A DNA stretch of 64,000 nt from Candidatus Omnitrophota bacterium (GCA_028707125.1 JAQTUX010000001.1:725764-789763); one strand, 5' to 3'. Numbered from the stretch's first letter, positions 16,741 through 35,922 are shown. A program made the numbers and translations. The notes: generated by a model from the letters alone, not told the origin.

Positions 16741-17997
16741 ATGTTTATATTATACGATTTATTTTTTCTGTTTTTTGCGTTGATTTACCTGCCGTATTCT
16801 CTGGCGAAGCGCAAGATCAACGCGGGTATTTTTCAGCGGATGGGGTTTTTGCGGCTGAAACAAGCCCCTGGCGCGGGGCTGATATGGCTCCACGCTGTAA
16901 GCGTGGGTGAGGTAATGGCTATCAAGGCCTTTGTCCGTGATACAGGCAGGGAATTCAGCCGGAACAAGATCGTCATCTCAACGGTAACCACAACCGGCAA
17001 TAAGCTGGCGGTAAAATTATTCGGTAATAACGCGCAGATATTCTATTTGCCTTTTGACCTGAGTTTTATCATCAAGCGCGTAATAAGGCGGATCAAGCCG
17101 TGTTTATTTATCGCGGTTGAAACAGAGCTTTGGCCGAACCTTCTTTCTTATCTTAAACAAAGCGGGGTGCCGACAGCGATCGTGAACGGCCGTATTTCCG
17201 ACAGGTCATTCAAAGGTTATTACCGCATGAAATTTTTATTCAAGCCGATATTAAATAAGGTAAGCTTATTCTGCGTGCGTTCTGACCAGGACGCGAGGCG
17301 GCTGGTCCAGCTGGGAGTTGATGATAAAAAAGTCAAAATAACGGGCAATATGAAGTTTGACCTGGAGATCAGCGCGCATTCTCTGGATATCGGGCTTAAA
17401 AGCGATGAGAAACTGTTCGTCTGCGGCAGCACGCATCCGCGCGAAGAGGAGATACTGCTGGGCGTTTACAGGCAGGCGCGCAGGCAGTTTCCGGATTTGA
17501 GGCTTTTAGTCGCGCCGAGGCATATAGAACGGTGCGGCGAGATAGAGGGGCTGGCCAGGAAAATGGGGTTTGACGCCTTGAGGATCTCGCGGATAAAGGC
17601 GGGCTGTCCCGCGGGCAGGAACTGCGTATTTCTTCTGGATATCATAGGCGAGTTGCCGTCATTATATAATATGGCCGATGTTGTGTTCATAGGGGGCAGT
17701 TTGATCGAGCACGGCGGCCACAATATCATTGAGCCGGCATTTTTCGGCAAGCCGATCGTGTTCGGCAGGCATATGTCCAATTTCAGGGATATTGCCGAGA
17801 TGTTCCTCAAGGATGAAGCAGCGATACAGGTAAAGGATGAAGCTGGATTAGGAAACGCTCTTAAGGATATTCTGGGCAGAGAAGATGTCAGGCAAAAGTT
17901 AGGCAACAACGCCCGTTCAGTGGTTGAGAAGAACAGAGGCGCCGTAGCGCGGACAATAGAGGAGATTGGAAGGATATTGGAGTATACCCCACACTAA
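16741..17997 (+). CDS. waaA: 3-deoxy-D-manno-octulosonic acid (Kdo) transferase
   Basis: LIWLHAVSVGEVMAIKAF is a GT30 N-terminal motif; 418 aa. It begins the lipid A/Kdo cluster. Confidence 0.85.
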   Translation: MFILYDLFFLFFALIYLPYSLAKRKINAGIFQRMGFLRLKQAPGAGLIWLHAVSVGEVMAIKAFVRDTGREFSRNKIVISTVTTTGNKLAVKLFGNNAQIFYLPFDLSFIIKRVIRRIKPCLFIAVETELWPNLLSYLKQSGVPTAIVNGRISDRSFKGYYRMKFLFKPILNKVSLFCVRSDQDARRLVQLGVDDKKVKITGNMKFDLEISAHSLDIGLKSDEKLFVCGSTHPREEEILLGVYRQARRQFPDLRLLVAPRHIERCGEIEGLARKMGFDALRISRIKAGCPAGRNCVFLLDIIGELPSLYNMADVVFIGGSLIEHGGHNIIEPAFFGKPIVFGRHMSNFRDIAEMFLKDEAAIQVKDEAGLGNALKDILGREDVRQKLGNNARSVVEKNRGAVARTIEEIGRILEYTPH

Positions 17998-18006
17998 CGT
18001 GTGGGG
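17987..18006. repeat. Palindromic hairpin repeat, copy a (CCCCACAC-TAAC-GTGTGGGG), spanning the waaA stop and preceding the lpxK ATG
   Basis: A perfect 8-bp stem with a 4-nt loop; 19 of 20 nt are identical to the copies at 20999 and 26317. Confidence 0.75.
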
Positions 18007-19104
18007 ATGGATATTATGATAAAGCGGTATTTTTACAATTTAGCAACCGATAGTCAGAAAGGCATTATAGCCGGCATACTAAAAGTATTCCTGTTTCTGC
18101 TTTCTCTGGTCTATGGAATTATTCTACGTATTTGCCGCAGGATTGCTTTGTCAGGGGCATTCCGTCCTGCCTGCAAGGTAATAAGCATCGGCAACATCAC
18201 CTGGGGCGGGACAGGAAAGACATCGTTAGTCAAACTGATCTTGCGGGTGTTAAAAGATAACGGCCGCAATCCGGCGGTCTTGATCAGAGGCTACGGACGC
18301 GAGGATAAGAACAGCCCTGTTATTGTGAAAGGCAGGCCTGAGGAATTCGGAATAAAGGGTATAGGGGATGAGGCATATATGCTGGCCGAGGATTTTCCCG
18401 ATGTGCCGATATTGATAGACGCCGACCGCCGCAGGTCTGCCGCTAAGGCGGCAGGCGAAATAAAAGCGGATACTGTTGTGCTTGATGACGGGTTTCAGCA
18501 TTGGAAATTAGAGCGCGATCTGGACATCGTCCTGCTCAACGCCAACGATCCTTTCGGTAACGGCCGCCTGATCCCGCGGGGCATATTAAGGGAGCCGCCT
18601 TCCTCGCTGAATCGCGCCGATATAATCTTGTTTACAAAGGCGGGAAGACAGGAAAGGGAAAAACTGGCAGCGTTGATAAGGGGCATAAACCCTTCTGCCC
18701 TGATGGCGTATTCTGACTATGTGCCTCGGTATTTTTATGATCTGGCCGATGAAAAAAGCACCTTGGAGGTGGATTCGCTGAAAGGCGAGGCGGCCTGCGT
18801 ATTTTCCGGCATAGGCGATGCCGGGTCTTTTGAGAAGACAGTCAGCGAATGCGGCGTATATATAAAGCTGCATTTAAAATTCCCCGACCATCATCTTTAC
18901 AGCGATAGCGATATTATAAAGATCAGGGCCGTCTGCCGCAGGAGCAGTATAAATACGGTGATCACCAGCCAGAAGGACGCGGTAAGGATAAGGGACCGCG
19001 CTTTGTTCGGCGGCCTGCGCGCGCTGGCGCTGAAAGCGGAGCTGGAGATAACACACAGCAAGGATGAATTTGTCCGGAGATTACTTTCTTTATATACTGC
19101 TTAA
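18007..19104 (+). CDS. lpxK: Tetraacyldisaccharide 4'-kinase
   Basis: ISIGNITWGGTGKTS is the LpxK P-loop. The ATG at 18007 is preferred over the in-hairpin GTG at 18001. Confidence 0.85.
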   Translation: MDIMIKRYFYNLATDSQKGIIAGILKVFLFLLSLVYGIILRICRRIALSGAFRPACKVISIGNITWGGTGKTSLVKLILRVLKDNGRNPAVLIRGYGREDKNSPVIVKGRPEEFGIKGIGDEAYMLAEDFPDVPILIDADRRRSAAKAAGEIKADTVVLDDGFQHWKLERDLDIVLLNANDPFGNGRLIPRGILREPPSSLNRADIILFTKAGRQEREKLAALIRGINPSALMAYSDYVPRYFYDLADEKSTLEVDSLKGEAACVFSGIGDAGSFEKTVSECGVYIKLHLKFPDHHLYSDSDIIKIRAVCRRSSINTVITSQKDAVRIRDRALFGGLRALALKAELEITHSKDEFVRRLLSLYTA

Positions 19105-20962
19105 GTCTTTAAGCGGGGTTTTTATGCTTATGCCTGTCGGCTGCGCCATATTTACAGGCGCGCTGTTGGGCAGGCTGGGGTATTATCTTGACCGCCGCCA
19201 TAGAAACGCTGCCTATAAGAATTTACGCATTGCCTTTGCCTCTTCTAAGGAGCCGGCAGAACTGCAGAGAATACTTAAGGGCTGTTTTGTGAACATCTGC
19301 CTGAGTTTCGTTGAGATGCTGCGGCTGCCCAAGGTGGATAAGCGGTATTTAGAGAGATTTGTGACCATAGAAGGCAGAGAGTATTTTGAAGAATGTTTCA
19401 GGCAGGGGAGGGGCCTGATAATTTTGGCCTCTCATTTCGGCAACTGGGAGCTGGCAATGTCCATGTGTTCGGCGTTTGGTTATCCTTTCAGCGTTATCGT
19501 ACAGGAGCAGAGAAAGAGCGGCCTGTTGAATGAGCTGCTTAACGATTATAGAAAGTCAAAGGGATATAAATTGATACCCGTGGATAAGAGCGCCAGAGAG
19601 GCAATGGCCGATCTAAAGGCGGGCAGGGTGCTGGGGATCGTGGCTGACCATGGAGGCGGCAGGGAGGGCAGCATGATAGAGTTTTTTTCACGCCCGGCAT
19701 CTACGCCTCAGGGCGCGGTAAAGTTAGCGCAACGGCTTAATGTTCCCATCATTATGGTTCATGTCATACGCCGGAAAGGCGCCTACCATAAAGTTGTTCT
19801 TTCTCCTCCTTTACGTCTGGCAACGGATGTGGATGAAAATCTGAGGATGATAAATAGATATATTGAGTCCTATGTGGGGAGTTTTCCGAATGAATACCTC
19901 TGGTTTTATAAGCGCTGGAAGTATTCTACGAAGCGGGACGCGCTTATTTTAAGCGATGGAAAACAAGGCCATCTGAATCAGTCAGAAGCGGTGCTGAAGG
20001 CCGCGGGAATGGGGAAGCGGCAGGTAGTCGGTAAGATCGCGAAGGTAGAATACAAGAACTTATTTATGAAATTTTTATTTTACTTTCTTGTGTTTTTATC
20101 GGGATTCGGCCGTATCTGCCGCGTTTTTATATTGAAGTCCTGCCTTAAAAAAGAATGTTACAAAGAATTGATCCATTATTACGCGGATATGGTTGTATCC
20201 TGCGGCTCATCGCTCGCGGGGGTTAACTTGCTTATCTCAAAGGAAAATGGCGCAAAGTCAGTCGCGGTTATGCGGCCGGGCGTATTCAGCCCCAGGAGGT
20301 TTGATCTGGTCATAGCGCCTAAGCATGACAGGCTCAGCGGGAAGCTTAAAAATATCGTAGTTACGGAAGGCGCGTTAAATACGATTGATGATTCCACAAT
20401 TCAGGAGGCAGGAAGGGCATTGATTAATAACGCCGGTTTGAATATTCAGCCGGACAGGAAATATTTAGGCATTCTTTTGGGCGGCGACGCAAAGGATTAT
20501 GGGTTGAATATAGAGGCGGCGCGCGATATCTTTAAGGCGCTAAAGTCGTTTTGCGAGAAGAATGGATGGGAGGCCCTTCTGACTACCTCGCGCAGGACAT
20601 CAAAGGATATTGAGAACCTTGTAAAGGATGAATTCGCGGCGTATCCGCGCTGCCGGCTTTTGATCATTGCTAATGAGAAGAACATTGAAGGGGCTGTGCC
20701 GGGCATCCTTGCCTTGAGCAGCGCGGTGATAGTATCGCCTGAAAGTATTTCAATGATCTCCGAGGCCGCCTCAAGCGGAAAGCCCGTATTTGTCTTTGAC
20801 GCGGAGAGAATAAGAGACAAGCGGCACAGGCGTTTTCTGGATAATCTCAAGGCAGGCGGGTATATCTCTGACTTCAATGTCGCCAATATCACAGAGCATA
20901 GCCCTAAGGTCTTGCGGGATTTGGAGCGTGTCCGAGGAAAGATTGTTGATTTGTTAGTATAG
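19064..20962 (+). CDS. Fusion of a lipid A biosynthesis lauroyl/myristoyl acyltransferase (LpxL/HtrB family, N-terminal ~295 aa) with a C-terminal ELM1/DUF1022-like domain
   Basis: The N-terminal half carries the LpxL-type HFGNWE and ...EYLWFYKRWK motifs. The C-terminal half carries LSDGKQGHLNQSEAV and FDLVIAPKHDRL, which recall the 'mitochondrial fission ELM1' family. One continuous 632-aa ORF. Confidence 0.7.
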   Translation: MNLSGDYFLYILLKSLSGVFMLMPVGCAIFTGALLGRLGYYLDRRHRNAAYKNLRIAFASSKEPAELQRILKGCFVNICLSFVEMLRLPKVDKRYLERFVTIEGREYFEECFRQGRGLIILASHFGNWELAMSMCSAFGYPFSVIVQEQRKSGLLNELLNDYRKSKGYKLIPVDKSAREAMADLKAGRVLGIVADHGGGREGSMIEFFSRPASTPQGAVKLAQRLNVPIIMVHVIRRKGAYHKVVLSPPLRLATDVDENLRMINRYIESYVGSFPNEYLWFYKRWKYSTKRDALILSDGKQGHLNQSEAVLKAAGMGKRQVVGKIAKVEYKNLFMKFLFYFLVFLSGFGRICRVFILKSCLKKECYKELIHYYADMVVSCGSSLAGVNLLISKENGAKSVAVMRPGVFSPRRFDLVIAPKHDRLSGKLKNIVVTEGALNTIDDSTIQEAGRALINNAGLNIQPDRKYLGILLGGDAKDYGLNIEAARDIFKALKSFCEKNGWEALLTTSRRTSKDIENLVKDEFAAYPRCRLLIIANEKNIEGAVPGILALSSAVIVSPESISMISEAASSGKPVFVFDAERIRDKRHRRFLDNLKAGGYISDFNVANITEHSPKVLRDLERVRGKIVDLLV

Positions 20963-20968
20963 TCAGAT

Positions 20969-21048
20969 TCTACACACGTAAGTGTGTAGAGCCGTGGACC
21001 CCACACTTACGTGTGGGGAATTAGGATACTACAGGCGTAAGCCTGTAG
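20969..21048. repeat. Triple-hairpin intergenic repeat: TCTACACAC-GTAA-GTGTGTAGA, CCCCACAC-TTAC-GTGTGGGG (copy b), CTACAGGC-GTAA-GCCTGTAG
   Basis: Three perfect 8-9-bp palindromes with GTAA/TTAC loops in 80 nt, directly upstream of the ATG at 21056. Confidence 0.8.
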
Positions 21049-21055
21049 AGGACAT

Positions 21056-23170
21056 ATGAATATCTTACAGATAGTTCCGGAACTGAATGTGGGCGGGGTA
21101 GAGACAGGGACGATAGACCTTGCCAAATACCTTGTAAGGCAGGGCCATAAGGTAGTTGTGATCTCTGCCGGCGGAGAGCTTGTGGCGGGCCTTGAGGCAT
21201 CCGGCGCGAAACACTATTCGTTGCCCGTTCACAGGAAGTCACTGATAAGCATCTTAAAGACAATAGGGAAGGTTGCCAGGGTGATCAGGGACGAAAATAT
21301 CCGTATAGTGCATTGCCGTTCGCGCGTGCCTGCCTGGATAGGTTATTTCGCGGCGCGGATAACGGATACGATATTTATAACTACCTGCCACGGGTTCTAC
21401 AGCACGCATTTCTTCAGTTCCGTGATGGGATGGGGTAAACTCATCATTGCCCCCAGCCAGGCCATAGCCCGCCATATGATCGAGGACTTCGGGGTCCTGC
21501 GGCAGCGCGTTCGTATAGTGCCGAGGAGCGTGGACCTTGAGAGGTTCAGGTTTATCCCGCCCAGGGACAGGGACTGGTCGTGCTTCAATATAGGTATCAT
21601 AGGGCGGCTGAGCCCTATCAAGGGGCACATTGATTTCCTGAAGGCCGTTTCAAAGGTTTTACGCCAGCATCCGGCAATAAAGGTTTGGGTCGTCGGAGAC
21701 GCCGCGCCGGGAAAGCAGCCGTATAAGGAGGAGATAGGCGTTATGGTGCGCCGGCTGGGGCTTTCTCACTGTACCGAATTCCTGGGTAACCAGAAGGACA
21801 TCCCTGGCGTTCTCTCTCAGCTCAATATGCTTGTAATGGCTACGACTACACAGGAGGCATTCGGCAGGGTGATAATCGAGGCGCATGCTTCGGGCGTGCC
21901 GGTAGTGGCAACAAGGGTGGGAGGGGTGGTGGATATCGTAGATGACGGAAAGACCGGATTATTGGTCTCTCCCAATGACCCGGAAGACATGCACAGGGCA
22001 ATGATGAAGATCATAAAGGATGAGAAGCTCAGGAGCAGCTTGGTATATTCCGCTTACGAGAAGGTCAAAAGGGACTTTAACGTTGAGCTTATGGTCTCAA
22101 ATACGCTTAAGGTTTATGAAGAGGCGGGCAGCAAATTCAACGTTCTGATCATAAAGCTCGGGGCAGTGGGCGATATAATACTGTCTGTGCCGGCACTCAG
22201 GGCGGTCAGGAAGAATTTCAAAAAGGATAATTACAAGATCGCCTGTGTTGTGGGAAAAGAGGCGAGGGAGCTTCTGGACAGATGCCCCTATATAGATGAG
22301 TTGATCCTTTACGATTATAAGGGTAAAGACAAGGGAGTCAGGGGCCTCCTGAAGACGGGTAAACTCCTGCGTAAAAAGTATACTGATTTCGTTATAGACC
22401 TGCAGAATAACCGCACCAGCCATATTTTAAGCCGGCTTTCCATGTCTTTAAAAAGATACGGGTACGATAACGGGAAGTTCAGTTTTCTTCTTAACAGGAA
22501 GGTGAGGTGGCCGGAGAAAAGATTGTCTCCTGTTGAGCACCAGTTCAGGATACTGCGTATGCTGGGCATAGAGCTCGAGGATGACCGGCTGGAGCTTTGG
22601 CCTAAAGACGAAGACAGGCGGCGCGTGGAGGACTTTCTCGGTTCGCAATTTTTAGCCCGGCCCAAATATCTGGCAGGCATGAATATAGGCGCTTCCGGCA
22701 GATGGCAGTCAAAACAATGGCCGAAGGAATACGTGGTTAAGTTGATCGACGGCCTCTCCAACATCGGCGTGCGTTGCATACTTACCGGCCAGGAACGCCA
22801 TTTGCCTGAGGCAAAGGAGCTTTACGCGATGGCCAGGGCGCAGAGCAAGCCCATAATCGCCTGCGGTAAGACCAACCTTAACGAACTGGCCTGCCTCATA
22901 GAGAAATGCGACGTGTTTATAACTCAGGATTCGGCCCCCATGCATATGGCGGCGGCGCTGGGGGTCCCTTTTGTGGCAATGTTCGGGCCAACCGATCCGG
23001 TGAAACACCTGCCTCCGGCAGAAAAATGCGTCCTGCTCAAGAAAGACCTGGCTTGTTCGCCTTGCTACAAGCCGAAATGCAAAGACGCTCTGTGCATGTC
23101 CGGCATAACCGTCAATGAGGCGCTTGAGGCGGTGGAGAAATTATTGAGAATAGAAAGCAGTCATGATTAG
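21056..23170 (+). CDS. Bifunctional glycosyltransferase: N-terminal GT4 (group 1) domain fused to C-terminal GT9 ADP-heptose:LPS heptosyltransferase domain
   Basis: The N-terminal MNILQIVPELNVGGVETGTIDLAKYL and the EX7E-like region are GT4. The C-terminal VLIIKLGAVGDIILSVPALRAVRKNF and ...ITQDSAPMHMAAALG are GT9; 704 aa. Confidence 0.75.
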   Translation: MNILQIVPELNVGGVETGTIDLAKYLVRQGHKVVVISAGGELVAGLEASGAKHYSLPVHRKSLISILKTIGKVARVIRDENIRIVHCRSRVPAWIGYFAARITDTIFITTCHGFYSTHFFSSVMGWGKLIIAPSQAIARHMIEDFGVLRQRVRIVPRSVDLERFRFIPPRDRDWSCFNIGIIGRLSPIKGHIDFLKAVSKVLRQHPAIKVWVVGDAAPGKQPYKEEIGVMVRRLGLSHCTEFLGNQKDIPGVLSQLNMLVMATTTQEAFGRVIIEAHASGVPVVATRVGGVVDIVDDGKTGLLVSPNDPEDMHRAMMKIIKDEKLRSSLVYSAYEKVKRDFNVELMVSNTLKVYEEAGSKFNVLIIKLGAVGDIILSVPALRAVRKNFKKDNYKIACVVGKEARELLDRCPYIDELILYDYKGKDKGVRGLLKTGKLLRKKYTDFVIDLQNNRTSHILSRLSMSLKRYGYDNGKFSFLLNRKVRWPEKRLSPVEHQFRILRMLGIELEDDRLELWPKDEDRRRVEDFLGSQFLARPKYLAGMNIGASGRWQSKQWPKEYVVKLIDGLSNIGVRCILTGQERHLPEAKELYAMARAQSKPIIACGKTNLNELACLIEKCDVFITQDSAPMHMAAALGVPFVAMFGPTDPVKHLPPAEKCVLLKKDLACSPCYKPKCKDALCMSGITVNEALEAVEKLLRIESSHD

Positions 23171-24185
23171 GAAGGCATTATTAATATTGTCGGCGGTATT
23201 AATTGGCATAGTTTGCGGACTGTTGGCATCAGAGTTACTTCTGCGTATAAATCCGGTACTCGGTTATTCTTGTGATTCATTTAAGTCAAGGGTCAATCCT
23301 TCTCCTTTTGCTAGCGGATCAGTGGCCAGATATCGCCCTTCGGACCTGCTGGGTTATGAATTGATACCAAATTCTCATCCCGATATAAACTCTTATGGGT
23401 TGATAGGCAGGGAGTATAAATTAGCCAAGGATAAAGGGGTATACCGTATACTTGTTATCGGCGATTCTATTGCTGAGCAGGGTTATGGGAGCGTGTTCTT
23501 AGAGGCCCGCTTGAATACAGACCCTCTGCTTAGCAAGAGGTACGTATTTCAGGTTTGGACGCTCGGCACTGGCAGTTACGACGTACGACGCTACGCCAGG
23601 TTCTTAGAACATAGAGGATTGGATTATAATCCCGACATGGTTATTACTTTCCTTTTTATGAATGATTTTGAACTAAATATGAATATTTATTATAAGGCCA
23701 AAAATGACGTCATTGAATATTGTTTCCCGATATCCGAGGTATCAAGGACCTATAATGTCAACCCTTTTCTTATGAAGCATTCGCATCTTTATCGGTTTAT
23801 AACCCTGGGGCTTAACAAACTCTTCTTATTAAATGAAAGAAAAGCAGGCGATATGCTTATGAAGCAGGAGTCCGGGGCAGATTATTTACAGAAGATAAAG
23901 GAAATATGCTCTCAAAACCAAATTACCTTGTTGCTGACAATATTTCCTTATCTTAAGCCGCTTAGTGAGTACGATGAGTATCGCAGGGGCAATTATAGAT
24001 GCCTTAACACAGCCGCAGGCGAATTAGGGTTGGATTATATAAACTTATATGACGGTTTATCGGCATATGATCTTTACAGTTTAAGGGAGGATATTAATGA
24101 TGATATGCATCCTAACCTGAAAGGGCATCGGATAATTTCAGGGATTATTCATGATTATATATTGAAGAAAGGATTGATTAAATAA
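23163..24185 (+). CDS. Membrane-anchored SGNH/GDSL-like hydrolase family protein
   Basis: An N-terminal TM helix is followed by YRILVIGDSIAEQG (a GDS(x) block). The gene is conspicuously AT-rich compared with its neighbours. Confidence 0.5.
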   Translation: MIRKALLILSAVLIGIVCGLLASELLLRINPVLGYSCDSFKSRVNPSPFASGSVARYRPSDLLGYELIPNSHPDINSYGLIGREYKLAKDKGVYRILVIGDSIAEQGYGSVFLEARLNTDPLLSKRYVFQVWTLGTGSYDVRRYARFLEHRGLDYNPDMVITFLFMNDFELNMNIYYKAKNDVIEYCFPISEVSRTYNVNPFLMKHSHLYRFITLGLNKLFLLNERKAGDMLMKQESGADYLQKIKEICSQNQITLLLTIFPYLKPLSEYDEYRRGNYRCLNTAAGELGLDYINLYDGLSAYDLYSLREDINDDMHPNLKGHRIISGIIHDYILKKGLIK

Positions 24186-24195
24186 GCGGTCGGAA

Positions 24196-25302: not shown

Positions 25303-26314
25303 GCGCATTTTGATCTATAACGTCAACTGGTTAGGCGATGTTTTGTTCTCTACGGCGGCGATCAGGGCGCTGCGCAGGAGCTTCCCCGACGCCTTCATCG
25401 CCAGCGTTATCCCGCCCCGCTGCAGGGAGATGCTGGAAGACAATCCGCACATAAACGAGATACTGACATTTGACGAGAAGTCGCCGCCCGCGGGTTTGTT
25501 CGGTTTGATCAAATTCATATTTTTACTGCGCGGCAGGCGGTTTGATACCTGTATTATGCTGCACCGTTCGCTGACACGCTGCCTGCTTGTGTTTCTCGCG
25601 GGCATCCCCCGAAGGGTCGGCTACAATTATAAGAAACGGAATTTTCTCCTGACCGATGTCGTAGCATTGCCCGATATGAATAATACGCACAGGGTTGACT
25701 TCTATTTGAATCTGGCAAAGGTGATCGGCGCCCGGCCGGAAAATAAGAAATTGGATTTCTATTTCAAAGAGGCGGACCGGGTTTTTGCGCGCGGGTTGCT
25801 GCGGGAGGCAGGGGTAAAAGAGGGTGATTTCTGCGTCGCGGTTAATCCCGGAGGTAACTGGGAGCCCAAAAGGTGGCCTAAAGATAATTTTTCTTCGCTT
25901 TGCGATAGATTGGTCTCTGATTTTGCCGCCAGGGTTATTGTCGTAGGCGCGGGCAAGGACAGTGGTTTAGTTAAAGAGATCACCGCTTCCATGAAGAATA
26001 AACCGCTGGATCTCGCGGGAAAACTCACGCTTAAACAATTAGGCGCTTTATTCACGTTGATGGACATCGTGGTTTCAGCTGACAGCGCGCCGCTGCATAT
26101 AGCCAACGCCGTGGACGCGAGGGCGATCTGCCTTTTTGGGCCGACTTCTCCCGAGGTGACCGGGCCGTACCTGAAAGGCGATAATATCATTGTGCAGAAG
26201 GATGTTGGCTGCAAGATACCCTGCTATAATCTTAAATGTCAGGAGAACCGTTGTATGCAGGCGATCAGGGTGGATGATGTCCTGGCGGCGGTGAGGGAGA
26301 TGCGGACGAAATGA
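25289..26314 (+). CDS. ADP-heptose:LPS heptosyltransferase (GT9)
   Basis: ILIYNVNWLGDVLFSTAAIRALRRSFP and ...VSADSAPLHIANAV are present. The ATG at 25289 with AAGGAG upstream is preferred over 25265. Confidence 0.8.
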   Translation: MQNPKRILIYNVNWLGDVLFSTAAIRALRRSFPDAFIASVIPPRCREMLEDNPHINEILTFDEKSPPAGLFGLIKFIFLLRGRRFDTCIMLHRSLTRCLLVFLAGIPRRVGYNYKKRNFLLTDVVALPDMNNTHRVDFYLNLAKVIGARPENKKLDFYFKEADRVFARGLLREAGVKEGDFCVAVNPGGNWEPKRWPKDNFSSLCDRLVSDFAARVIVVGAGKDSGLVKEITASMKNKPLDLAGKLTLKQLGALFTLMDIVVSADSAPLHIANAVDARAICLFGPTSPEVTGPYLKGDNIIVQKDVGCKIPCYNLKCQENRCMQAIRVDDVLAAVREMRTK

Positions 26315-26316
26315 GA

Positions 26317-26364
26317 CCCCACACTTACGTGTGGGGAATGGATACTACAGACGTAAGTCTGTAG
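26317..26364. repeat. Double-hairpin intergenic repeat: CCCCACAC-TTAC-GTGTGGGG (copy c) + AATGGATA + CTACAGAC-GTAA-GTCTGTAG
   Basis: Identical to copy b in the first hairpin. The second hairpin differs from copy b by a compensatory pair (GGC/GCC versus GAC/GTC). Confidence 0.8.
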
Positions 26365-26372
26365 TCGCAATT

Positions 26373-28374: not shown

Positions 28375-28399
28375 CGAAAGCGGCAAAATATGCTATTAT
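28371..28399 (+). promoter_or_regulatory. Sigma70-like promoter TTGACG-17 nt-TATTAT immediately upstream of the DHS-like gene
   Basis: -35 TTGACG (28371-28376), a 17-nt spacer and -10 TATTAT (28394-28399). The -35 overlaps the stop codon of the preceding GT9 gene. Confidence 0.45.
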
Positions 28400-28409
28400 T
28401 TAAACTCCT

Positions 28410-29345: not shown

Positions 29346-30373
29346 ACATCAACAAGAACCGGATAAAAAATATCATTAACGGGTTTTCCCGGGCCAGGGT
29401 CCTTGTAGTCGGAGACCTCATCCTTGACCAGTATATTTTCGGAGAGATCGACAGGATCTCTCCGGAAGCGCCGGTGCCTGTGGTGCATGCCAAGGAGAGG
29501 CAGTATTTGCCCGGCGGCGCCTGCAACGTAGCCGCCAATATCACAAGTTTAGGCGGCTCTGCTCAACTCGTCGGGGTCATAGGCAGGGACCTGCTTGCGA
29601 AGAAGTTGTTATCCGAGATTAAGGAAAGGCGCATAGGCACGGCAGGTATTATTCAGGACGCCGCGCGGCAGACCATACTTAAAACCAGGGTATTGGGCCA
29701 GAAACAGCAGGTAGTCAGGGTGGACTGGGAAGATGAGTCCGCGATATCGGATAAGACATCAGGCAGGATGTGCGAATATATCCTTAAAAACGCGTCCAGG
29801 TTTGACGCGGTCATTATTGAGGACTACGGAAAGGGCGTCATAACAGAGAAGGCCCTCAGGACGCTGAAGAGCGCGGTCGGCGGCGGCAAGATAATAACCG
29901 TTGACCCGAAGGAAGAACATTTTGATATTTACAGGGCGTTGTCTGTGACCTGCATAACCCCTAACCGCAGGGAGGCGGAATGCGCCATAAGGTATATAAA
30001 GATAAAGGATAAAGATAACGCCCTTGATATTTACAGCGATAAACTGAGGAGCGACAACGATATTAATCTGGCAGGCGAAGAGCTAAGAAAATACTTAAGG
30101 TGTAAATCCGTGCTTATCACTCTTGGCGAGTCAGGCATGCGTTTATTTGAGACGGGAAGGGTTACCCCCATACCTACTTTCGCGCAGGAGGTTTTTGACG
30201 TATCTGGAGCAGGCGACACCGTGATCGCCGCCCTGACCCTCGCGCTTGCCTCAGGCGCCGGGCTCGCGGAGGCCGCCTTTATCGCTAACCACGCCGCCGG
30301 CATAGTCGTGGGAAAGCTGGGCGTGGCTACGACGGATAGAAAGGAACTAAGGGAGCGTTTACAATGGACGTGA
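29342..30373 (+). CDS. hldA: D-glycero-beta-D-manno-heptose-7-phosphate kinase (RfaE domain I, PfkB family; kinase domain only)
   Basis: VLVVGDLILDQYIFGEIDRISPEAPVPVV and the C-terminal DVSGAGDTVIAALT (PfkB motif) are present. There is no adenylyltransferase domain. Confidence 0.8.
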   Translation: MNINKNRIKNIINGFSRARVLVVGDLILDQYIFGEIDRISPEAPVPVVHAKERQYLPGGACNVAANITSLGGSAQLVGVIGRDLLAKKLLSEIKERRIGTAGIIQDAARQTILKTRVLGQKQQVVRVDWEDESAISDKTSGRMCEYILKNASRFDAVIIEDYGKGVITEKALRTLKSAVGGGKIITVDPKEEHFDIYRALSVTCITPNRREAECAIRYIKIKDKDNALDIYSDKLRSDNDINLAGEELRKYLRCKSVLITLGESGMRLFETGRVTPIPTFAQEVFDVSGAGDTVIAALTLALASGAGLAEAAFIANHAAGIVVGKLGVATTDRKELRERLQWT

Positions 30374-31104
30374 TCGGAGTAATACCGGCGCGGTTTGGTT
30401 CAAGCAGGTTTCAGGGCAAGGTGCTTGCCGATATATTGGGCAAGCCGATGATACAGCATGTCTGGGAGCGTTCCAAACAGGCGAAGCTGCTTGATGACCT
30501 GGTCATTGCCTGCGATGACGAAAAGGTGGCGCGGGCCGCGGAGGGGTTTGGGGCGAAGGTGGTATTTACCGCCAAGGCGCATTCCTGCGGCACAGACAGG
30601 ATCGCGGAGGTGATCAATCCCATTGATGTGAACATCGTGATCAATATTCAGGGAGACGAACCGCTGGTCCATCCCGCGATGATAGATAATGTTGCCAGCG
30701 AACTCCTGGGCAATAAGGACGTATATATGGTAACGCTGATGAAGAAGATAGAGTCGGCGGATGAGGTCTCCAGCCCCAATGTCGTAAAGGTCATAACCGA
30801 CAAAGACGGCTTCGCGATCTATTTTTCCCGCTCCGCCATTCCTTATCATCGTTCGGAAAGCGCGGATGAGCCGGCCCCGGTTTATTATAAACATATCGGG
30901 CTCTATGGGTACACCAAGGATTTCATCTTTACTTACAAGAATATCCCGAAGTCAAAACTGGAACTGGCGGAGAAACTGGAACAATTGAGGGTTTTGGAGC
31001 ATGGGCTGCGCATTAAAGTTCTTGAAACCAGATTTGATACCGTGGGAGTGGACAGGTTTGAAGATATAGCCAAGGTAGAGCGATTGCTCAGGGAAGGGCT
31101 ATGA
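30364..31104 (+). CDS. kdsB: 3-deoxy-manno-octulosonate cytidylyltransferase (CMP-Kdo synthetase)
   Basis: [31 protein letters not shown] is present; 246 aa. Confidence 0.9.
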
Positions 31105-31922
31105 AGACGGTAAGGGTAGGAAAGATAAAGATAGGCGCCGACAGCCCTCTGGTTTTGATCGCCGGGCCCTGTGTCATTGAATCAGAGGCAATGGCATTGT
31201 CCTGCGCGGGAAAATTAAAGTCGATCTGCGACGGGCTTAAGGTACCGTTCATATTCAAGGCCAGCTACGATAAGGCAAACCGGCTTTCAGGCAAGTCCTT
31301 TCGCGGCCCCGGCATAAAAAAAGGGCTTAATGTGCTTAAGCGCGTTAAGAAAGAGATCGGCGTTCCCGTGCTCAGCGACGTGCATTGCAGGGAAGAGGTA
31401 AAGGAGGCTGCCGGGGTATTGGACGTGATCCAGATCCCCGCGTTCCTCTGCCGCCAGACCGACCTGCTTGTTGCCGCGGCAAAGACAGGGAAGCCGGTAA
31501 ACATAAAGAAGGGGCAGTTCATGGCTCCCTGGGATATAATCCCGGTGCTGCATAAAGTGGAATCACAGGGCAATAAGAACATATTGATCACCGAGCGCGG
31601 CGTGAGTTTCGGTTACAACAATTTAGTCGTTGACTTGAGGTCGCTTGCCGTTTTGAGCGAAAGCGGCTACCCGGTTATCTTTGACGCCACCCACAGCGTG
31701 CAGCTGCCCGGCGGAAGAGGCGATGCCTCTTCGGGGCAGAGGCAGTATGTTGCCGGTCTTTCGCGCGCCGCCGTTGCCTTCGGCTGTAACGGGCTGTTTT
31801 TGGAAGTCCACCCTGACCCTGATTCGGCGCTTTGCGACGCGGCCAATATGATCTCGTTGAATGAGGTCAAGCATTTACTTTCCCAGGTAATTAAAATAAA
31901 CGAGGCGTTGAAATGTGCGTAA
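31101..31922 (+). CDS. kdsA: 2-dehydro-3-deoxyphosphooctonate aldolase (Kdo-8-phosphate synthase)
   Basis: [15 protein letters not shown]...[12 protein letters not shown]...KKGQF are DAHP/KDO8P synthase motifs. Confidence 0.9.
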
Positions 31923-32872
31923 AGAGGGCAAGAGAGGTCTTGAGGATCGAGGCCGAGGCGATAAAAGGCCTTACGCCCCGGCTAAACGAAGATTTTAATA
32001 AGGCAGTGAGGACCATATACGAATGTAAGGGAATGGTCGTGCTTACCGGCATGGGCAAGGCAGGCATCATCGCCCAGAAGATCTCCGCGACGCTCGCCTC
32101 TACGGGCACGCCCAGTTTGTTCCTTCATTCCGCGGAAGCGATACACGGGGACCTGGGCAGGGTCAGGAAGGAAGATGTGGTAGTCGCCCTTTCCTATAGC
32201 GGAGAGACGCAAGAGGTAAAGCAGCTGCTCCCGATATTAAAAAAGATCGGTTCCACGCTTATATCAATTACAGGCGGCCCAAGGTCAACGCTGGCGCGCT
32301 ATTCCGATGTGGTCCTGGACGTCAGCGTGAAAAGAGAGGCATGCCCTTTAGGTCTGGCGCCCACGGCCTCCACTACCGCTATGCTGGCCATGGGGGACGC
32401 GCTTAGCGTCTGCGTTCAGGAAAAGAAGGGTTTCCGCGAAGAGGATTTCGCGCTGTATCACCCCGGCGGTTCGCTGGGTAAGCGGCTTCTGCTGAAGGTC
32501 GCGGATATAATGCGCAAAGGCAGGGATAATCCGGTAGTGAAAGAAAGCGAGAAGGTTTCCAGGGTGCTGTACAAGATCACGCAGGCGCGCGCGGGCGCGG
32601 CTTCAATTGTAGGCAAAGATGGAAAACTGAGCGGCATATTTACCGACGGAGATCTGAGAAGGCATCTTGAGTCGGATATCGATATTGCCAACTGTCATAT
32701 CTCTGAAGTCATGACCAGGAGGCCGGCAACGATCACAAAAGAGCGGCTGGCTGTAGAGGCGCTGAAGATATTAAAGGATAAAAAGATCGATGAGCTGCCT
32801 GTCGTAGATGAGAAAATGCGGCCTGTGGGCATGCTTGATGTGCAGGATCTGCTTAAGGCGGGATTAGTTTAG
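31913..32872 (+). CDS. kdsD: Arabinose-5-phosphate isomerase (SIS domain + tandem CBS domains)
   Basis: [41 protein letters not shown] is a SIS domain. The C-terminal CBS pair is present; 319 aa. Confidence 0.85.
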
Positions 32873-32875
32873 GAT

Positions 32876-33397
32876 ATGGATAATCTTACAGAAAAACTAA
32901 AGAAGGTCAAAGTCCTGCTGCTGGACGTGGACGGGGTGCTGACGGACGGCAGGATCATCTATGATTCCAAAGGCAGGGACATGAAATTTTTTGATGTCCA
33001 CGACGGCATGGGCGTGCACCTGCTTAAAAAGGCGGGCATCAAGGTCGTGCTGGTGACCGCGCGCGGCTCAAAGGCGATAAGGCCGCGCGCAAAAGATATG
33101 GGGGTTGATTTTATTTTTGAGGACCTTTCGCCCAAGACATCCTGCCTGGGCAAGGTGCTTGGCCGTTTTAAAGTGGCTGCCGACGAACTTATGTTCGTAG
33201 GAGATGACCTCGTTGACCTCTGCCTGATGAAGGCGGTAGGGCTTCCTGTCGCCGTATGCAATGCCTGCCCGGAAGTCATAAATAAGGCGGCGTATATAAC
33301 AAAAAAGTCAGGCGGCAGGGGAGCTGTCAGAGAGATATCCGAGCTTATCCTTAAGGCGCAGGGGAAGTGGGATGAGGTAATAGCGAAATATGTCTAA
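32876..33397 (+). CDS. kdsC: Kdo-8-phosphate phosphatase (HAD-IIIA)
   Basis: VKVLLLDVDGVLTDGRIIY...GDDLVDL are present; 173 aa. Confidence 0.88.
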   Translation: MDNLTEKLKKVKVLLLDVDGVLTDGRIIYDSKGRDMKFFDVHDGMGVHLLKKAGIKVVLVTARGSKAIRPRAKDMGVDFIFEDLSPKTSCLGKVLGRFKVAADELMFVGDDLVDLCLMKAVGLPVAVCNACPEVINKAAYITKKSGGRGAVREISELILKAQGKWDEVIAKYV

Positions 33398-34265
33398 ATA
33401 TAATATTCTCTTCTTATTATTTTGTATTTTTATAGCGGCGAGCTCCTTTCTCGCTTCCGCTGAAGAGGAGCAGAAAGATGCGGAGCAGCAGATGGAGGAG
33501 TTCAGCATAGCCGGCTTCGGCGAACAAGGGAAGAAGACCTGGCAGCTTAACGGCAAGAACGCCGATATATATTCCAGCAACATAAAACTGACCGATATAG
33601 TCGCGGATATGTACGGTGATCAAGACGACATCACGCTTACCGCCGACCGCGGCTCTTTTGACAAGGCAAACGGCAAGATGCACCTTGAAAGCAACGTGGT
33701 GGCCACGACAAAATCCGGCGCCAAGATGACCACGGATTCGCTGGATTGGGACAGGGAGAAACAACTGGTCACCACTCCGGACAGGGTGAATGTTTACAGG
33801 GAGAATATGCACACGCAGGGCACAGGGGCAGAGGGAAAGACAGACCTCCAGACCGTGACCCTGCAGAAGGATGTTAAGGTTGAGATAGAGCCCAAGGAGG
33901 GAGAGAAGGCCCAGGGTACGGTCACCATTACCTGCGACGGAGCGCTTGAAGTCGATTACGGCAAAGAGGTCGCGGTGTTTAACGAGAACGTTAAGGCGGA
34001 TGACGGGGAAAATCAGATCTACAGCGACAGGATGGACGTCCATTTCAGCATGTCGGGGGAGGTTGACCCCAAGACCGGCCAGAAAAAGGGCAGTATAAAA
34101 AAGATAGTGGCAGAGGGTAATGTGAAGATAGTAAAGGGCGAGAACGAGAGTTACGCCCAGAAAGCGGAGTATATTGCCGAGGAGAAAAGGGTCGTGCTTA
34201 CCGGCAGGCCTAAACTTATGATTCTGTCTGAAGGCGGAGGGCTGGATGCATCTTTTGGAGATTAA
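33390..34265 (+). CDS. LptC/LptA-family (OstA-like beta-jellyroll) LPS transport protein, probably an LptC-LptA-like fusion or elongated LptA
   Basis: A signal/anchor helix is followed by repetitive OstA-like beta-rich sequence. It sits between kdsC and lptB, as in canonical kdsC-lptC-lptA-lptB operons; 291 aa. Confidence 0.65.
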   Translation: MSKYNILFLLFCIFIAASSFLASAEEEQKDAEQQMEEFSIAGFGEQGKKTWQLNGKNADIYSSNIKLTDIVADMYGDQDDITLTADRGSFDKANGKMHLESNVVATTKSGAKMTTDSLDWDREKQLVTTPDRVNVYRENMHTQGTGAEGKTDLQTVTLQKDVKVEIEPKEGEKAQGTVTITCDGALEVDYGKEVAVFNENVKADDGENQIYSDRMDVHFSMSGEVDPKTGQKKGSIKKIVAEGNVKIVKGENESYAQKAEYIAEEKRVVLTGRPKLMILSEGGGLDASFGD

Positions 34266-34968
34266 GGGCCTGACCAAATCATACGGCGGAAGGACGGTCG
34301 TAAAGGGCGTAGACCTTTTAGTCAAGCGCGGTGAGATAGTCGGGCTGCTCGGCCCCAACGGCGCGGGCAAGACCACGACCTTCTATATGATAGTAGGGGT
34401 GATCCCGCCCGACAAGGGCAAAGTCATCTTTGACAATCATGATATAACCAGGTTCCCCATTCACAGGCGTTCGCATTTCGGCATAAGTTATTTAAGCCAG
34501 GAGGCATCCGCGTTCAGGAAACTCACGGTAGAAGAAAATATTATGGCCATACTGGAGATACTGCCGTTGGGCCCCAAAGAAAGAGAGAAACGCCTCAGAG
34601 GCCTGTTGAAGGAATTGAATATCGCCCATCTTGCCAAGTCAAAGGCCTATACCCTTTCGGGCGGCGAGAGAAGGCGGCTTGAGATCACGCGGGCGCTTGT
34701 CACCAACCCTTCCTTTATATTGCTGGATGAGCCGTTTTCAGGCATTGACCCCATCGTGGTCGCCGAAGCGCAGGAAATAATAAGGGAGCTTAAGGCCAAG
34801 GGTTTGGGCATATTATTGACTGACCATAATGTAAGGGAGACCCTTGCCATTACCGACAGGGCGTACCTGATAGCGGACGGCAAGATCCTGATCTCCGGCA
34901 GCGCCGGCGATCTGATAGATAACCCCAGGGCCAGAGAGTTATACCTGGGGGAGAAATTCAAAATGTGA
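34246..34968 (+). CDS. lptB: LPS export ABC transporter ATP-binding protein
   Basis: Walker A GPNGAGKTTTF, the signature LSGGERRRLEI and Walker B ILLDEPFSGID are present; 240 aa. Confidence 0.9.
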   Translation: MHLLEIKGLTKSYGGRTVVKGVDLLVKRGEIVGLLGPNGAGKTTTFYMIVGVIPPDKGKVIFDNHDITRFPIHRRSHFGISYLSQEASAFRKLTVEENIMAILEILPLGPKEREKRLRGLLKELNIAHLAKSKAYTLSGGERRRLEITRALVTNPSFILLDEPFSGIDPIVVAEAQEIIRELKAKGLGILLTDHNVRETLAITDRAYLIADGKILISGSAGDLIDNPRARELYLGEKFKM

Positions 34969-34989
34969 AGCCAGGAAGGAGCAGCTTAA

Positions 34990-35880
34990 GTGAAAAAACA
35001 GATCAAGAAGATAGACGCCACAAAGATGGAAGTGCATATTGAGGCGGGCGCCGATGTGGTAGCCGGTAAATTCAACGAGGTTTACGAAAAGATCTCAAAA
35101 GAGGCGAAGGTCAAGGGTTTCAGGCCGGGCAAGGTGCCGCGCGATATCCTGGAAAAACATTATTCATCTCATGCCCATCAACAGGTAGTCAACGAGCTTG
35201 TTCCGGATCTATTGAAGAAGGCGGCGGATGAAGACAAGATTAATATAGTAAGCGTCCTCAATGTCAGCGACGTCAATTTAAGCGGCGCGAATATTTCCTT
35301 TAAGGCGGATGTTGAGGTTGAGCCGGAGGTCAAGCTCGGCGAATATAAGGGCATTAAGGTCAAATGGGAAGAAGTAAAGATCGGCAAGGATGACGTCAAA
35401 AGGTATATAGAGGCGCTGAAGGAAAAGGGCGGGCTGGAAGTCCCCGGCGAAGGGCTCGCGCGCGCTCTCGGCTACCCCAGTAATGAGCAGATGGAGGAGT
35501 CGGTGCGCATGCAGTTGTATCTTCAAAAAGAAAATCAGATAAGGTCGGGCATAGAGCAGAAGATAATAGACGAGCTTCTAAAGAGTTCTTCCTTAAGCGT
35601 CCCGCAGAGTTTATTGGCCAGGCGCCTTGATGAGCTTGCCTCCGACGCCAAGATGCAGCTTGCGATGAGGGGTTTTACCAAGGAGCAGATCGAGGGCAAG
35701 GACGAAGATTTGAAGAAGGAACTCAAGGCAAATGCCGAAACGCAGGTGAAGATATACCTTATATTCAAAAGTATAGCGCAGAAAGAGAATATAACCGTAG
35801 ACAATCAGGTGACTCAGAAGGTGATGGAGTTCTTGCTTAAGGCCGCCGACTGGGATGTCCCGTCGAGGATAATAACATAA
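34990..35880 (+). CDS. tig: Trigger factor lacking the PPIase (FKBP) domain (GTG start)
   Basis: The ribosome-binding signature GFRPGKVPRDILEKHY and the tig-clpP gene order are present. At 296 aa it is too short to contain the central PPIase domain. Confidence 0.7.
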   Translation: MKKQIKKIDATKMEVHIEAGADVVAGKFNEVYEKISKEAKVKGFRPGKVPRDILEKHYSSHAHQQVVNELVPDLLKKAADEDKINIVSVLNVSDVNLSGANISFKADVEVEPEVKLGEYKGIKVKWEEVKIGKDDVKRYIEALKEKGGLEVPGEGLARALGYPSNEQMEESVRMQLYLQKENQIRSGIEQKIIDELLKSSSLSVPQSLLARRLDELASDAKMQLAMRGFTKEQIEGKDEDLKKELKANAETQVKIYLIFKSIAQKENITVDNQVTQKVMEFLLKAADWDVPSRIIT

Positions 35881-35886
35881 CTGACT

Positions 35887-35904
35887 CCACACTTACGTGT
35901 GGGG
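35887..35904. repeat. Palindromic hairpin repeat, copy d (CCACAC-TTAC-GTGTGG, flanked by GG), upstream of clpP
   Basis: The same loop and stem core as copies a-c, followed by the same GGGGAATnG tail. Confidence 0.65.
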
Positions 35905-35922
35905 AATTGGAGAGGAGGATAT

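Follow-up and report, generated by a model that had tools for sequence, protein, structure and literature searches.

Intergenic hairpin repeats of an Omnitrophota bacterium as probable REP/REPIN-like elements with a small IS200-type transposase as partner

A 64,000-nucleotide stretch of DNA from a Candidatus Omnitrophota bacterium (GCA_028707125.1 JAQTUX010000001.1:725764-789763; hereafter the window, analysed over its full length) carries seven hairpins across four intergenic gaps. We consider it probable, at roughly 70%, that these hairpins are bipartite, non-autonomous DNA elements similar to repetitive extragenic palindromes (REPs) and their doublets (REPINs), and that their partner is a small Y1/HUH transposase of the IS200 type. 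The family consists of two modules, A and B, with covarying stems and lineage-matched loops; its copies have a preferred orientation and position, are present or absent at orthologous sites, and are physically linked to one transposase subfamily whose catalytic residues are conserved. A first-pass annotation of the window, made from the sequence alone, had described these hairpins and proposed several roles for them. Every element that it listed was recovered by pattern matching, comparison with shuffled sequence and inspection of the raw sequence. Among the proposed roles, the one of REP-like elements or miniature inverted-repeat transposable elements agrees best with what was found, since the repeats are dispersed, insertion-polymorphic, and tied both physically and evolutionarily to a Y1 transposase.

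Hairpins A and B in the window and in related genomes

Hairpin A, CCCCACAC-TTAC-GTGTGGGG, occurs four times in the window (copies a to d), always on the plus strand (Table 1). Copies b and c hold the exact 20-mer CCCCACACTTACGTGTGGGG, copy a has a TAAC loop and copy d has CTCCACAC as 5' arm. The pattern gave a mean of 0.00 matches in 100 dinucleotide-preserving shuffles, and GGGG-AAT(n)GGA tails after hairpin A were seen in the raw sequence. Hairpin B is present in three plus-strand copies, two of the form CTACAGRC-GTAA-GYCTGTAG and one CTACACAC variant. The variant had been listed as a third hairpin; to judge from its sequence it is a B-type unit, so that copy b reads B-A-B, copy c A-B, and copies a and d A alone with linker remnants. 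A composite covariance model, run over the whole window with filters off, detected no further copies. In copy a the mutated loop (TTAC to TAAC) provides the stop codon TAA of the upstream gene waaA (17995-17997), and in copy b the terminal AGG(A) sits at the Shine-Dalgarno position of the following gene.

Table 1. Coordinates of the hairpins in the window, of the genes that follow them, and of related features at other loci
Feature	Coordinates	Strand	Description
Copy a	17986..18013	+	Hairpin A at 17987-18006, loop TAAC, then ATGGATA (A-B linker remnant); without B; covariance model 37 bits
B-type hairpin	20969..20990	+	TCTACACAC-GTAA-GTGTGTAGA; 23 bits for the B half of the covariance model
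Copy b, hairpin A	20998..21022	+	A at 20999-21018, loop TTAC; conserved 5' A, 3' AAT tail
Copy b, hairpin B	21024..21051	+	GGATA, B at 21029-21048 (CTACAGGC-GTAA-GCCTGTAG), AGG(A)
Copy b, A+B doublet	20996-21054	+	Covariance model 77.9 bits
Copy c, hairpin A	26316..26339	+	A at 26317-26336; begins 2 nt past the stop of the upstream GT9 gene
Copy c, hairpin B	26340..26365	+	GGATA, B at 26345-26364 (CTACAGAC-GTAA-GTCTGTAG); stem extendable to 26344-26365; G-C pair of copy b replaced by A-T (compensatory)
Copy c, doublet	26314-26370	+	Covariance model 79 bits
Copy d	35884..35911	+	A variant at 35885-35904 (CTCCACAC-TTAC-GTGTGGGG, one T.G wobble), then AATTGGA; without B; 34.8 bits
lpxK start	18007	+	ATG downstream of copy a
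GT4-GT9 start	21056	+	ATG downstream of copy b
GT9 start	26373	+	ATG downstream of copy c
clpP start	35923	+	ATG downstream of copy d
Third module	L062:5585-5615, 7476-7500; L002:5400-5425; L015:5222-5245		After hairpin B in Planctomycetota copies
Second repeat family	L102:6683-6700, 10182-10199, 10664-10681; L103:3460-3477, 3942-3959		V-ATPase intergenic region
(ATACGAR)n repeat	L050:5171-5221; L081:5163-5210; L090:659-772		Also at related loci
Owenweeksia locus 1	L057:3362-4284		Copies above the RF01687 threshold
Owenweeksia locus 2	L153:2792-3607		Copies at 28-30 bits, below the threshold

A scan with CCCCACACTWACGTGTGGGG against one genome per species retrieved 67 stretches, mostly from metagenome-assembled genomes (MAGs) of Planctomycetota and Omnitrophota, where about one match would be expected by chance on a back-of-envelope estimate. 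The exact 20-mer was found 5-7 times per genome in several Planctomycetota MAGs and also in several Omnitrophota MAGs, besides divergent copies. In both phyla the recurrent doublet is A followed by AATGGATA, B and AGG. In the aligned flanks, hairpin A is preceded by a conserved A and followed by AAT(G); after a variable, short spacer come (G)GATA, hairpin B, whose loop is of the GNRA type, and AGG. This gives A-CCCCACAC-TNNC-GTGTGGGG-AAT(G) as consensus of module A and (G)GATA-CYRCNNNC-GNRA-GNNNGYRG-AGG as that of module B. On the 5' side of hairpin A, a single conserved A was found at -1 in 52 of 57 copies, and the sequence upstream was otherwise purine-rich. At some loci A and B stood singly or in the order B-A. 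A covariance model of the composite element detected additional, divergent copies in the fetched loci of related genomes.

The compensatory change that the first-pass annotation had reported between the two canonical B copies of the window (G-C to A-T) is genuine. Over 27 copies of B, double-sided changes affected 7 of the 8 stem pairs and pairing was 100%, with 0 of 500 shuffles as high as the observed covariation score; since the copies were chosen as hairpins, the complete pairing is partly by construction, which does not apply to the compensatory changes. The B stems of different lineages (CCACACAC, CCACACGC, CCACAGGC, CTACAGGC, CTGCAGGC, CTGCGCAC, CCACACAT and a longer CCACATCCCGA) all pair, some of them with G.U pairs, and the A stem has compensated variants in other lineages as well (CCCCACGC/GCGTGGGG and CCCCATAC/GTATGGGG). 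It had been concluded from the base-pair change that the stem is under selection. Pairing is indeed kept, but in a DNA palindrome such covariation is no proof of selection at the RNA level, because the single-stranded DNA substrate of an HUH enzyme predicts an identical pattern.

The loops vary together. In Planctomycetota the A and B stems are near-identical and their loops are reverse complements, and from lineage to lineage an A loop TTAC goes with a B loop GTAA or GTGA, and A loops TTCC, TCCC or TGCC go with B loops GGAA, GGGA or AGAA. Such reverse-complementary, co-varying loops are expected for inverted copies that are recognised alike on opposite strands, as in REPINs. Three copies (L049, L009 and L055) had the A stem with a GTAA loop in place of the usual TTAC and unchanged flanks, so the A loop can flip. 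G.T versus A.C mismatches were considered as a guide to the folding strand and were set aside, as both occurred in degenerate copies and the selection of copies was biased.

Three further repeat arrangements were seen in the fetched loci. Planctomycetota copies contain a third module after B, AGGRAAGAAACGT-N-TTTACGC, a small palindrome of the CGTA..TACG type, which brings the element there to about 100 nt and is missing from the Omnitrophota copies of the window. A second repeat family, TGCCTAAA-GTGACAC-TTAC-GTGTCAT-CCCTTCGGC, has the common core ACAC-TTAC-GTGT and lies in both orientations in a Planctomycetota V-ATPase intergenic region. In a Pyrinomonadaceae MAG (L005:5400-6730), an open reading frame (ORF) of 275 residues with two Y1_Tnp matches (E=8e-40) adjoins a tandem array whose units, GGTTGGACTTGAACGNATCCCCACAC-NNNN-GTGTGGGG, have hairpin A inside.

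A small Y1 transposase that carries both hairpins

In 7 of the 67 stretches the 20-mer was located within an ORF of 120-140 residues that encodes a Y1_Tnp/IS200-like transposase (Pfam PF01797, E=1e-28), with hairpin A inside the ORF and hairpin B at or near its stop codon. Hairpin A is read in the transposase frame as CC-CCA-CAC-TTA-CGT-GTG-GGG-AAT (T-P-H-L-R-V-G-N), and the ORF ends in ...R-I-P-H-T-stop, encoded by GGATA-CCACACAC-GTGA, where the stop codon falls in the loop of hairpin B. Two transposase genes (L042 and L047) have the whole A-B doublet in frame at the position of hairpin A; another (L039) has no internal hairpin, and A-B follows immediately past the catalytic YIRNQ. The peptide TP[HR][LF]RVGN was present in most of 68 database homologues, and an IPHT or IPHM end in many. 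Gene DNA that was fetched for homologues showed the same plan with other sequences: one gene has A as CCCCACGC-TTCC-GCGTGGGG with B as CTACAGGC-GGAA-GCCTGTAG, and two more have an A loop TGCC with a B loop GGAA, and an A loop TCCC with a B loop AGAA.

A metagenome scan with the family alignment yielded 26 loci of this subfamily, for which 54 other IS200-like loci served as controls. Strict A hairpins were found in 18 of the 26 loci, strict B hairpins in 22 and both in 17, compared with 1 of the 54 controls. All 22 A and 30 B copies in the subfamily loci were on the transposase strand, their asymmetric loops being strand-fixed. The two histidines of the HUH motif (H48 and H50), the catalytic tyrosine (Y114) and the glutamine of Y-x3-Q (Q118) were invariant in the 26 sequences. 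The protein, of about 120 aa with motifs DHVH, FWARRYG and YIRNQ, has IS608 TnpA as closest solved structure (PDB 2a6m, E=8e-12), and by these features it looks functional.

The segment P-H-L-R-V-G aligns with N-H-L-K-T-K of IS608, ahead of the conserved W, and the codons of hairpin A overlie the ancestral IS200 "PHLK" motif in the alphaC-beta4 region (the loop preceding beta4). This region has been described as length-variable (Quentin et al. 2018, PMC6006769). Stem changes within the ORF are compensated despite the protein changes that they bring, from PHLRVG to PRFRVG (CCCCACGC/GCGTGGGG) and to PYFRMG (CCCCATAC/GTATGGGG). Hairpin structure is preserved within the ORF, with amino-acid change as the cost.

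A homologue is encoded in the window's own genome. The GT4-GT9 protein of the window (P0069) is MDD4909775.1 with 100% identity, and the transposase homologue P0045 (MDD4909898.1) is on the same 1,261,957-bp contig of a Candidatus Omnitrophica MAG; as the two accessions are 123 apart, tnpA probably lies about 123 genes from the GT4-GT9 gene and about 100 kb beyond the window, a distance estimated from this numbering. P0045 contains TPHLRVGN and ends in R-I-L-H-T. Its C-terminus matches the I-L-H-T-stop that the CTACACAC stem of the B-type hairpin at 20969 spells in frame (ATT-CTA-CAC-ACG-TAA). The P0045 gene would be expected to carry hairpin A at its TPHLRVGN codons and GGATACTACACACGTAA... 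at its stop codon.

No A or B hairpin was found 5' of tnpA in L062, L050, L052, L018, L047, L069, L071 or L072, all hairpins being within the ORF or 3' of it. At most one tnpA copy was present among the loci recovered per GTDB genome, with one gene per recovered contig, and the gene is co-directional within housekeeping operons (V-ATPase E to C, fabD to fabF, upstream of miaB). The order V-ATPase E, tnpA, C was found in at least nine loci, a position conserved in many related genomes. In contrast, an ordinary IS200 in the same scan gave 13 matches from one assembly. The transposase looks domesticated, appears to be single-copy and vertically inherited and, because it has no 5' hairpin, at most one recovered copy and a fixed operon position, its gene does not behave like an insertion sequence. 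A transposase variant with an apparently precise A-B deletion (P0023) could equally be a repeat-induced assembly chimera and was not used as evidence. Downstream of one tnpA-bearing fab operon (L069:6700-10250) there are several nucleotidyltransferase/HEPN gene pairs and two genes for 23S-rRNA-intervening-sequence proteins.

The minimal doublet, A-AATG/GATA-B, equals the A...B segment of the transposase gene minus the 93 nt between the hairpins. This would also suit a miniature IS200/IS605 element of the kind known as palindrome-associated transposable elements (PATEs), in which A is the left end and B the right end on the same strand, a single-stranded circle is formed as in IS608, and the A...B segment of tnpA is the parent. 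The enzyme is indeed nearest to IS608 TnpA, the A and B copies are all on the gene's strand, and the plus strand of the window, with its leading-strand GC skew, is probably the lagging-strand template. We nevertheless regard a PATE as unlikely. Its two ends should be same-strand ends, whereas the reverse-complementary, co-varying loops suggest one hairpin on opposite strands, as in REPINs. An A...B unit would hold only the C-terminal third of the transposase, and dispersed copies made of A, the C-terminal coding segment and B were not seen. Moreover, outside the hairpins conservation is limited to about 1 nt before A and 3 nt after B, unlike at the ends of IS608, and A and B are also found solitary or in the order B-A.

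Genomic context, occupied and empty junctions, and the mode of action

In the window the hairpins separate waaA from lpxK, an lpxL/ELM1 fusion from a GT4-GT9 fusion, two GT9 genes, and tig from clpP; Pfam upheld the gene labels given earlier (lpxK, GT4-GT9, GT9, clpP). The next ATG follows hairpin A after 1, 37, 36 and 18 nt, thus within the 40 nt that had been claimed. Every gene and every hairpin of these loci is on the plus strand. Although intergenic DNA makes up just 2.7% of the window (with generous ORF calls), 4 of 4 hairpin loci are intergenic, and the hairpins form the bulk of these four spacers. In related genomes copies are mainly between genes as well, mostly co-directional ones, and some modules are in frame within ORFs; the upstream neighbour is on the same strand in about 44 of 49 copies and the downstream neighbour in about 40 of 44, and hairpin A typically starts 0-20 nt past the upstream stop codon. 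The placement just upstream of start codons, which had been emphasised at first, is accurate as a description and is no explanation; the elements fill very short spacers between co-directional genes. GC skew is positive along the whole window, which makes the plus strand probably the lagging-strand template, where IS200/IS605 elements act. As this is also the sense strand of all genes, a replication bias and a transcription bias are inseparable here.

Mechanical ORF calls extend upstream into the hairpins through GTG or TTG codons within A or B (18001, 26331 and 35899 in the window; L062:5545), and the A-B doublet has one stop-free reading frame (P-H-L-R-V-G-N-G-Y-H-T-R-E-C-V-E). No tRNA or tmRNA was found in the window. 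Between 44000 and 52000 its G+C content is 0.42-0.45, against about 0.50, and the GC skew is weaker. This region encodes ORFs of 1278 aa (45016-48852) and 888 aa (49156-51822), both internally repetitive; in the latter, a 51-nt repeat occurs three times at 50335-51036 with a spacing of about 325 nt, and there is a perfect palindrome with a 15-bp stem at 50582-50615.

The same junctions may be occupied or empty. In a syntenic relative (77% identity of the GT4-GT9 protein) gene order is kept over 22 kb and no element is present, the spacer from lpxL/ELM1 to the glycosyltransferase gene being 36 nt compared with 93 nt in the window. TCTACAG... and AGGATA in this empty junction were considered as remnants of an element and judged unconvincing. 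The absence of the elements from the same junctions speaks against a conserved part in the regulation of these genes. Among close relatives in Planctomycetota, three junctions of the V-ATPase operon are polymorphic. At K to E, L062 and L102/L103 have an element, whereas L050, L052, L080, L081, L083, L090 and L093 have none; at F to A, L062 and L083 have one, L052 has a decayed copy, and L090 and L081 have none; and at A to B an element is present only in L062 and L083. At orthologous sites the B unit can also be variably present beside an intact A (L066 versus L023/L004, and L054 versus L030/L041). The empty K to E junctions have a 7-nt tandem repeat, (ATACGAR)n, which evolves rapidly and lies just 5' of the E-subunit start.

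These distributions bear on the idea that the hairpins are host-selected, cis-acting RNA stem-loops, serving stabilisation, RNase processing or sequestration of the ribosome-binding site, with an incidental link to the transposase. About 90% of the copies are sense-oriented between co-directional genes, 0-20 nt past a stop codon; several start codons have, at a distance of 4-10 nt, a GGAGG/AGGA motif that the 3' arm of B overlaps; the loops of B are of the GNRA type, and G.U pairs occur in some stems. The RNA fold of copy b is also very stable (-47.5 kcal/mol, z = -7.2). However, the DNA fold is of equal significance, and for the window copies the RNA and DNA folds are equally convincing; a long A:B hairpin, considered as an alternative, was not the minimum-energy fold of these copies in either. 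A cis-acting RNA would also have to be reconciled with elements that are missing at the same junctions in the syntenic relative, are polymorphic among close relatives and in one case decayed, adjoin genes unrelated in function (lipopolysaccharide synthesis, clpP, V-ATPase, fatty-acid synthesis), recur in frame within ORFs including that of the transposase, and are associated specifically with one transposase subfamily. No Rfam family matched the window at the gathering threshold, and on copy b there were only microRNA chance matches far below it. Taken together, we find this account quite improbable. Effects on mRNA stability or translation are plausible, though probably as side effects and not as the reason for the family.

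The hairpins are not simple intrinsic terminators either, as had been recognised from the start: A is followed by an AAT... tail and B by AGG..., with no T-tract, and none of the terminator-like sites called on the plus strand coincided with a hairpin (22 calls in all versus 20.3 expected, the level of chance). The first-pass annotation had further suggested double-stranded operators (ACAC-N4-GTGT) for a dimeric regulator of the downstream genes, which perfect palindromes near start codons might indicate. Operators conserve bases, whereas here the stem sequence varies and pairing is maintained; the loops are asymmetric and strand-specific, and the sites are within operons, between unrelated genes and inside ORFs, and are missing in the syntenic relative. 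We give this suggestion hardly any credence.

IS608 TnpA and E. coli TnpA(REP) provide an established model for enzyme action on hairpins. By analogy with them, the enzyme partnered with the REP/REPIN-like elements would recognise hairpins that fold while the DNA is transiently single-stranded, and would cut and rejoin DNA beside them; in this way units of A, B or A-B would be copied or transferred to other sites. Insertions would survive only in tiny spacers between co-directional genes or in one stop-free reading frame, and the strand bias agrees with the lagging-strand-template rule of IS200/IS605 as well as with the sense strand of genes. After insertion the units must be transcribed, as very stable intercistronic stem-loops, and the AGG(A) of B can act as the ribosome-binding site of the next gene.

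Several points weigh against REP/REPIN-like elements maintained in this way. That the enzyme binds, cuts or moves the hairpins by a single-stranded DNA route, and which unit moves, is something that we infer from these models; tnpA lies outside the window, and the hairpins of the P0045 gene are read back from its protein sequence. The copy number seems modest, probably tens per genome and not hundreds, with 4 loci in the window. An unpaired GT[AG]G foot is missing, and the motifs of the enzyme are IS200-like and not those of a canonical REP-associated tyrosine transposase (RAYT). A selected RNA function would likewise account for the bias to the sense strand and for the AGG(A) tail. Since tnpA has no hairpin on its 5' side, the mobile unit may be A, B, A-B or A...B, and the comparison of filled and empty junctions yielded no clean boundary, target-site signature or target duplication, because the flanks had diverged or been replaced.

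Relation to known hairpin systems and to Acido-Lenti-1

In canonical systems the REPs bear an unpaired GTAG or CGTC foot, and the RAYTs belong to protein class 2 (Di Nocera 2013, PMC3733652; PMC6006769). The present system resembles theirs in its short, dispersed extragenic palindromes, often doublets of inverted units; in a single low-copy, vertically inherited Y1/HUH gene physically tied to its cognate repeats; and in the lineage-wise co-variation of repeats and enzyme, with copies that can be in frame within genes (PMC3733652; PMC6006769). It differs in several respects. There is no unpaired GT[AG]G/CGTC foot, the CTAC...GTAG of Omnitrophota B being paired within the stem and preceded by GATA. 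Its two modules differ from each other and have a set order, orientation and flanking sequence (A...AATG / GATA...B...AGG). The enzyme, of about 120 aa, has subclass-1.1-like motifs (DHVH, FWA, YIRNQ), whereas class-2 RAYTs have a Y-motif ending in NP (Y-x-x-x-N-P) and extra domains. The hairpins lie within the enzyme ORF and at its stop codon and not on both sides of the gene, and the host phyla are Omnitrophota and Planctomycetota. Because the foot is missing and the enzyme is not class 2, we do not file the system as canonical REP/RAYT, though it seems to work like one.

A precedent for hairpins within a transposase gene is RAYT subclass 2.4, in which REP sequences are inserted in frame in tnpA(REP) (Quentin et al. 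2018, PMC6006769). Its proteins are of another class (NH[IFV]H, WQ, YIxNNP, about 194 aa), its REPs are canonical, long or double-foot GTAG ones, and its insertions vary in length and content, whereas here one hairpin occupies a defined loop of nearly every member as a conserved peptide and a second spans the stop codon. With IS200/IS605 elements (IS608, ISDra2 and PATEs) the system has in common the nearest enzyme, a hairpin-dependent and strand-specific arrangement, and an orientation that fits the lagging-strand template. Unlike in these, tnpA lacks a hairpin on its 5' side, does not occur in multiple copies and has a fixed syntenic operon position, and the A and B loops are reverse complements and not identical. 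The enzyme has motifs like those of subclass 1.1 (true IS200), without the behaviour of an insertion sequence. TnpA-Y1 class 3 of Planctomycetes and Acidobacteria has been associated with "atypical secondary structures" (Quentin et al. 2018). Its phyla overlap with those found here, its arrangement is REPtron-like with non-GTAG hairpins, and it is regarded as an intermediate between insertion sequence and REPtron. Its proteins, by contrast, have about 178 aa, motifs NHVH, W[TA] and YV..EQ, and hairpins with a CnGA foot, compared with about 120 aa, DHVH, YIRNQ and other hairpin flanks here. In the searchable literature the exact hairpin sequence did not turn up, and only an unrelated Sleeping Beauty paper was returned.

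Acido-Lenti-1 (RF01687) is an orphan candidate small RNA of Acidobacteria and Lentisphaerae with no known function (Weinberg et al. 2010, PMC2864571). The scan loci L014, L025, L036, L043, L051, L057 and L067 matched the RF01687 model, and in them the 20-mer is hairpin 1. That the window's elements are themselves Acido-Lenti-1 small RNAs acting in trans would agree with this exact identity to hairpin 1 of bona fide RF01687 matches in Bacteroidota and Acidobacteriota (37-54 bits, threshold 37), with the multi-copy occurrence, and with the common architecture of an 8-bp stem, CC...GG ends and a C-UNAC-G loop. The identity across phyla is partly a matter of ascertainment, however, as stems vary widely and exact matches alone were retrieved. 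In addition, the window gave no RF01687 match at the gathering threshold of 37 bits and none at E <= 10 on 20940-21070; the linker is AAT and not CUA, the second hairpin differs, and the copies are intra-operonic and not free-standing genes. The motif, described as a small RNA and not as a mobile repeat, is itself without known function (PMC2864571) and flanks Y1 transposase genes in Owenweeksia. We judge it very unlikely that the hairpins are small RNAs of this kind.

The Owenweeksia sp. MAG contains two paralogous subclass-1.2 Y1 genes (YIENQEKHH), each flanked by Acido-Lenti-1 copies in a REPtron-like arrangement. Subclass 1.2 is listed without associated repeats in the literature. As three other subclass-1.2 loci (L154-L156) had no RF01687 match, a link between Acido-Lenti-1 and these transposases is only partly supported. 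In one of the three, from Flavobacterium, a Flavo-1 RNA (RF01705, 61 bits; L156:1795-1871) is located about 1.1 kb upstream of the Y1 gene, which may be a coincidence or another link to an orphan motif.

These comparisons raise the possibility, which we put forward tentatively and at somewhat less than even odds, of a REPtron class not yet described. Its enzyme would be a mini-IS200 transposase of Omnitrophota and Planctomycetota, inherited vertically and present in single copy, with both recognition hairpins encoded in its ORF; dispersed A-B doublets would be its non-autonomous offspring, and Acido-Lenti-1 would be a REP-like partner of subclass-1.2 Y1 transposases. With both hairpins in the enzyme ORF, the enzyme and its DNA substrate would co-evolve in cis, which would explain the 20-nt identity across distant lineages. 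The logic of a Y1 transposase paired with hairpin repeats is already established; what is new here is the transposase with embedded hairpins and a possible explanation of Acido-Lenti-1, an orphan Rfam motif that is thereby offered a testable origin. For annotation, such hairpins should not be taken for riboswitches, terminators or operators, and they cause over-extended ORF calls at the starts and ends of genes, N-termini included. The idea of a resident transposase that maintains hairpin repeats would extend to Omnitrophota, Planctomycetota and an IS200-like enzyme, and the boundary between insertion sequence and domesticated system becomes blurred. A recognition hairpin in the coding sequence of its own enzyme would place that sequence under a dual constraint, of protein and of DNA structure, in which covariation of the stem forces H/V to Y/M changes in the protein.

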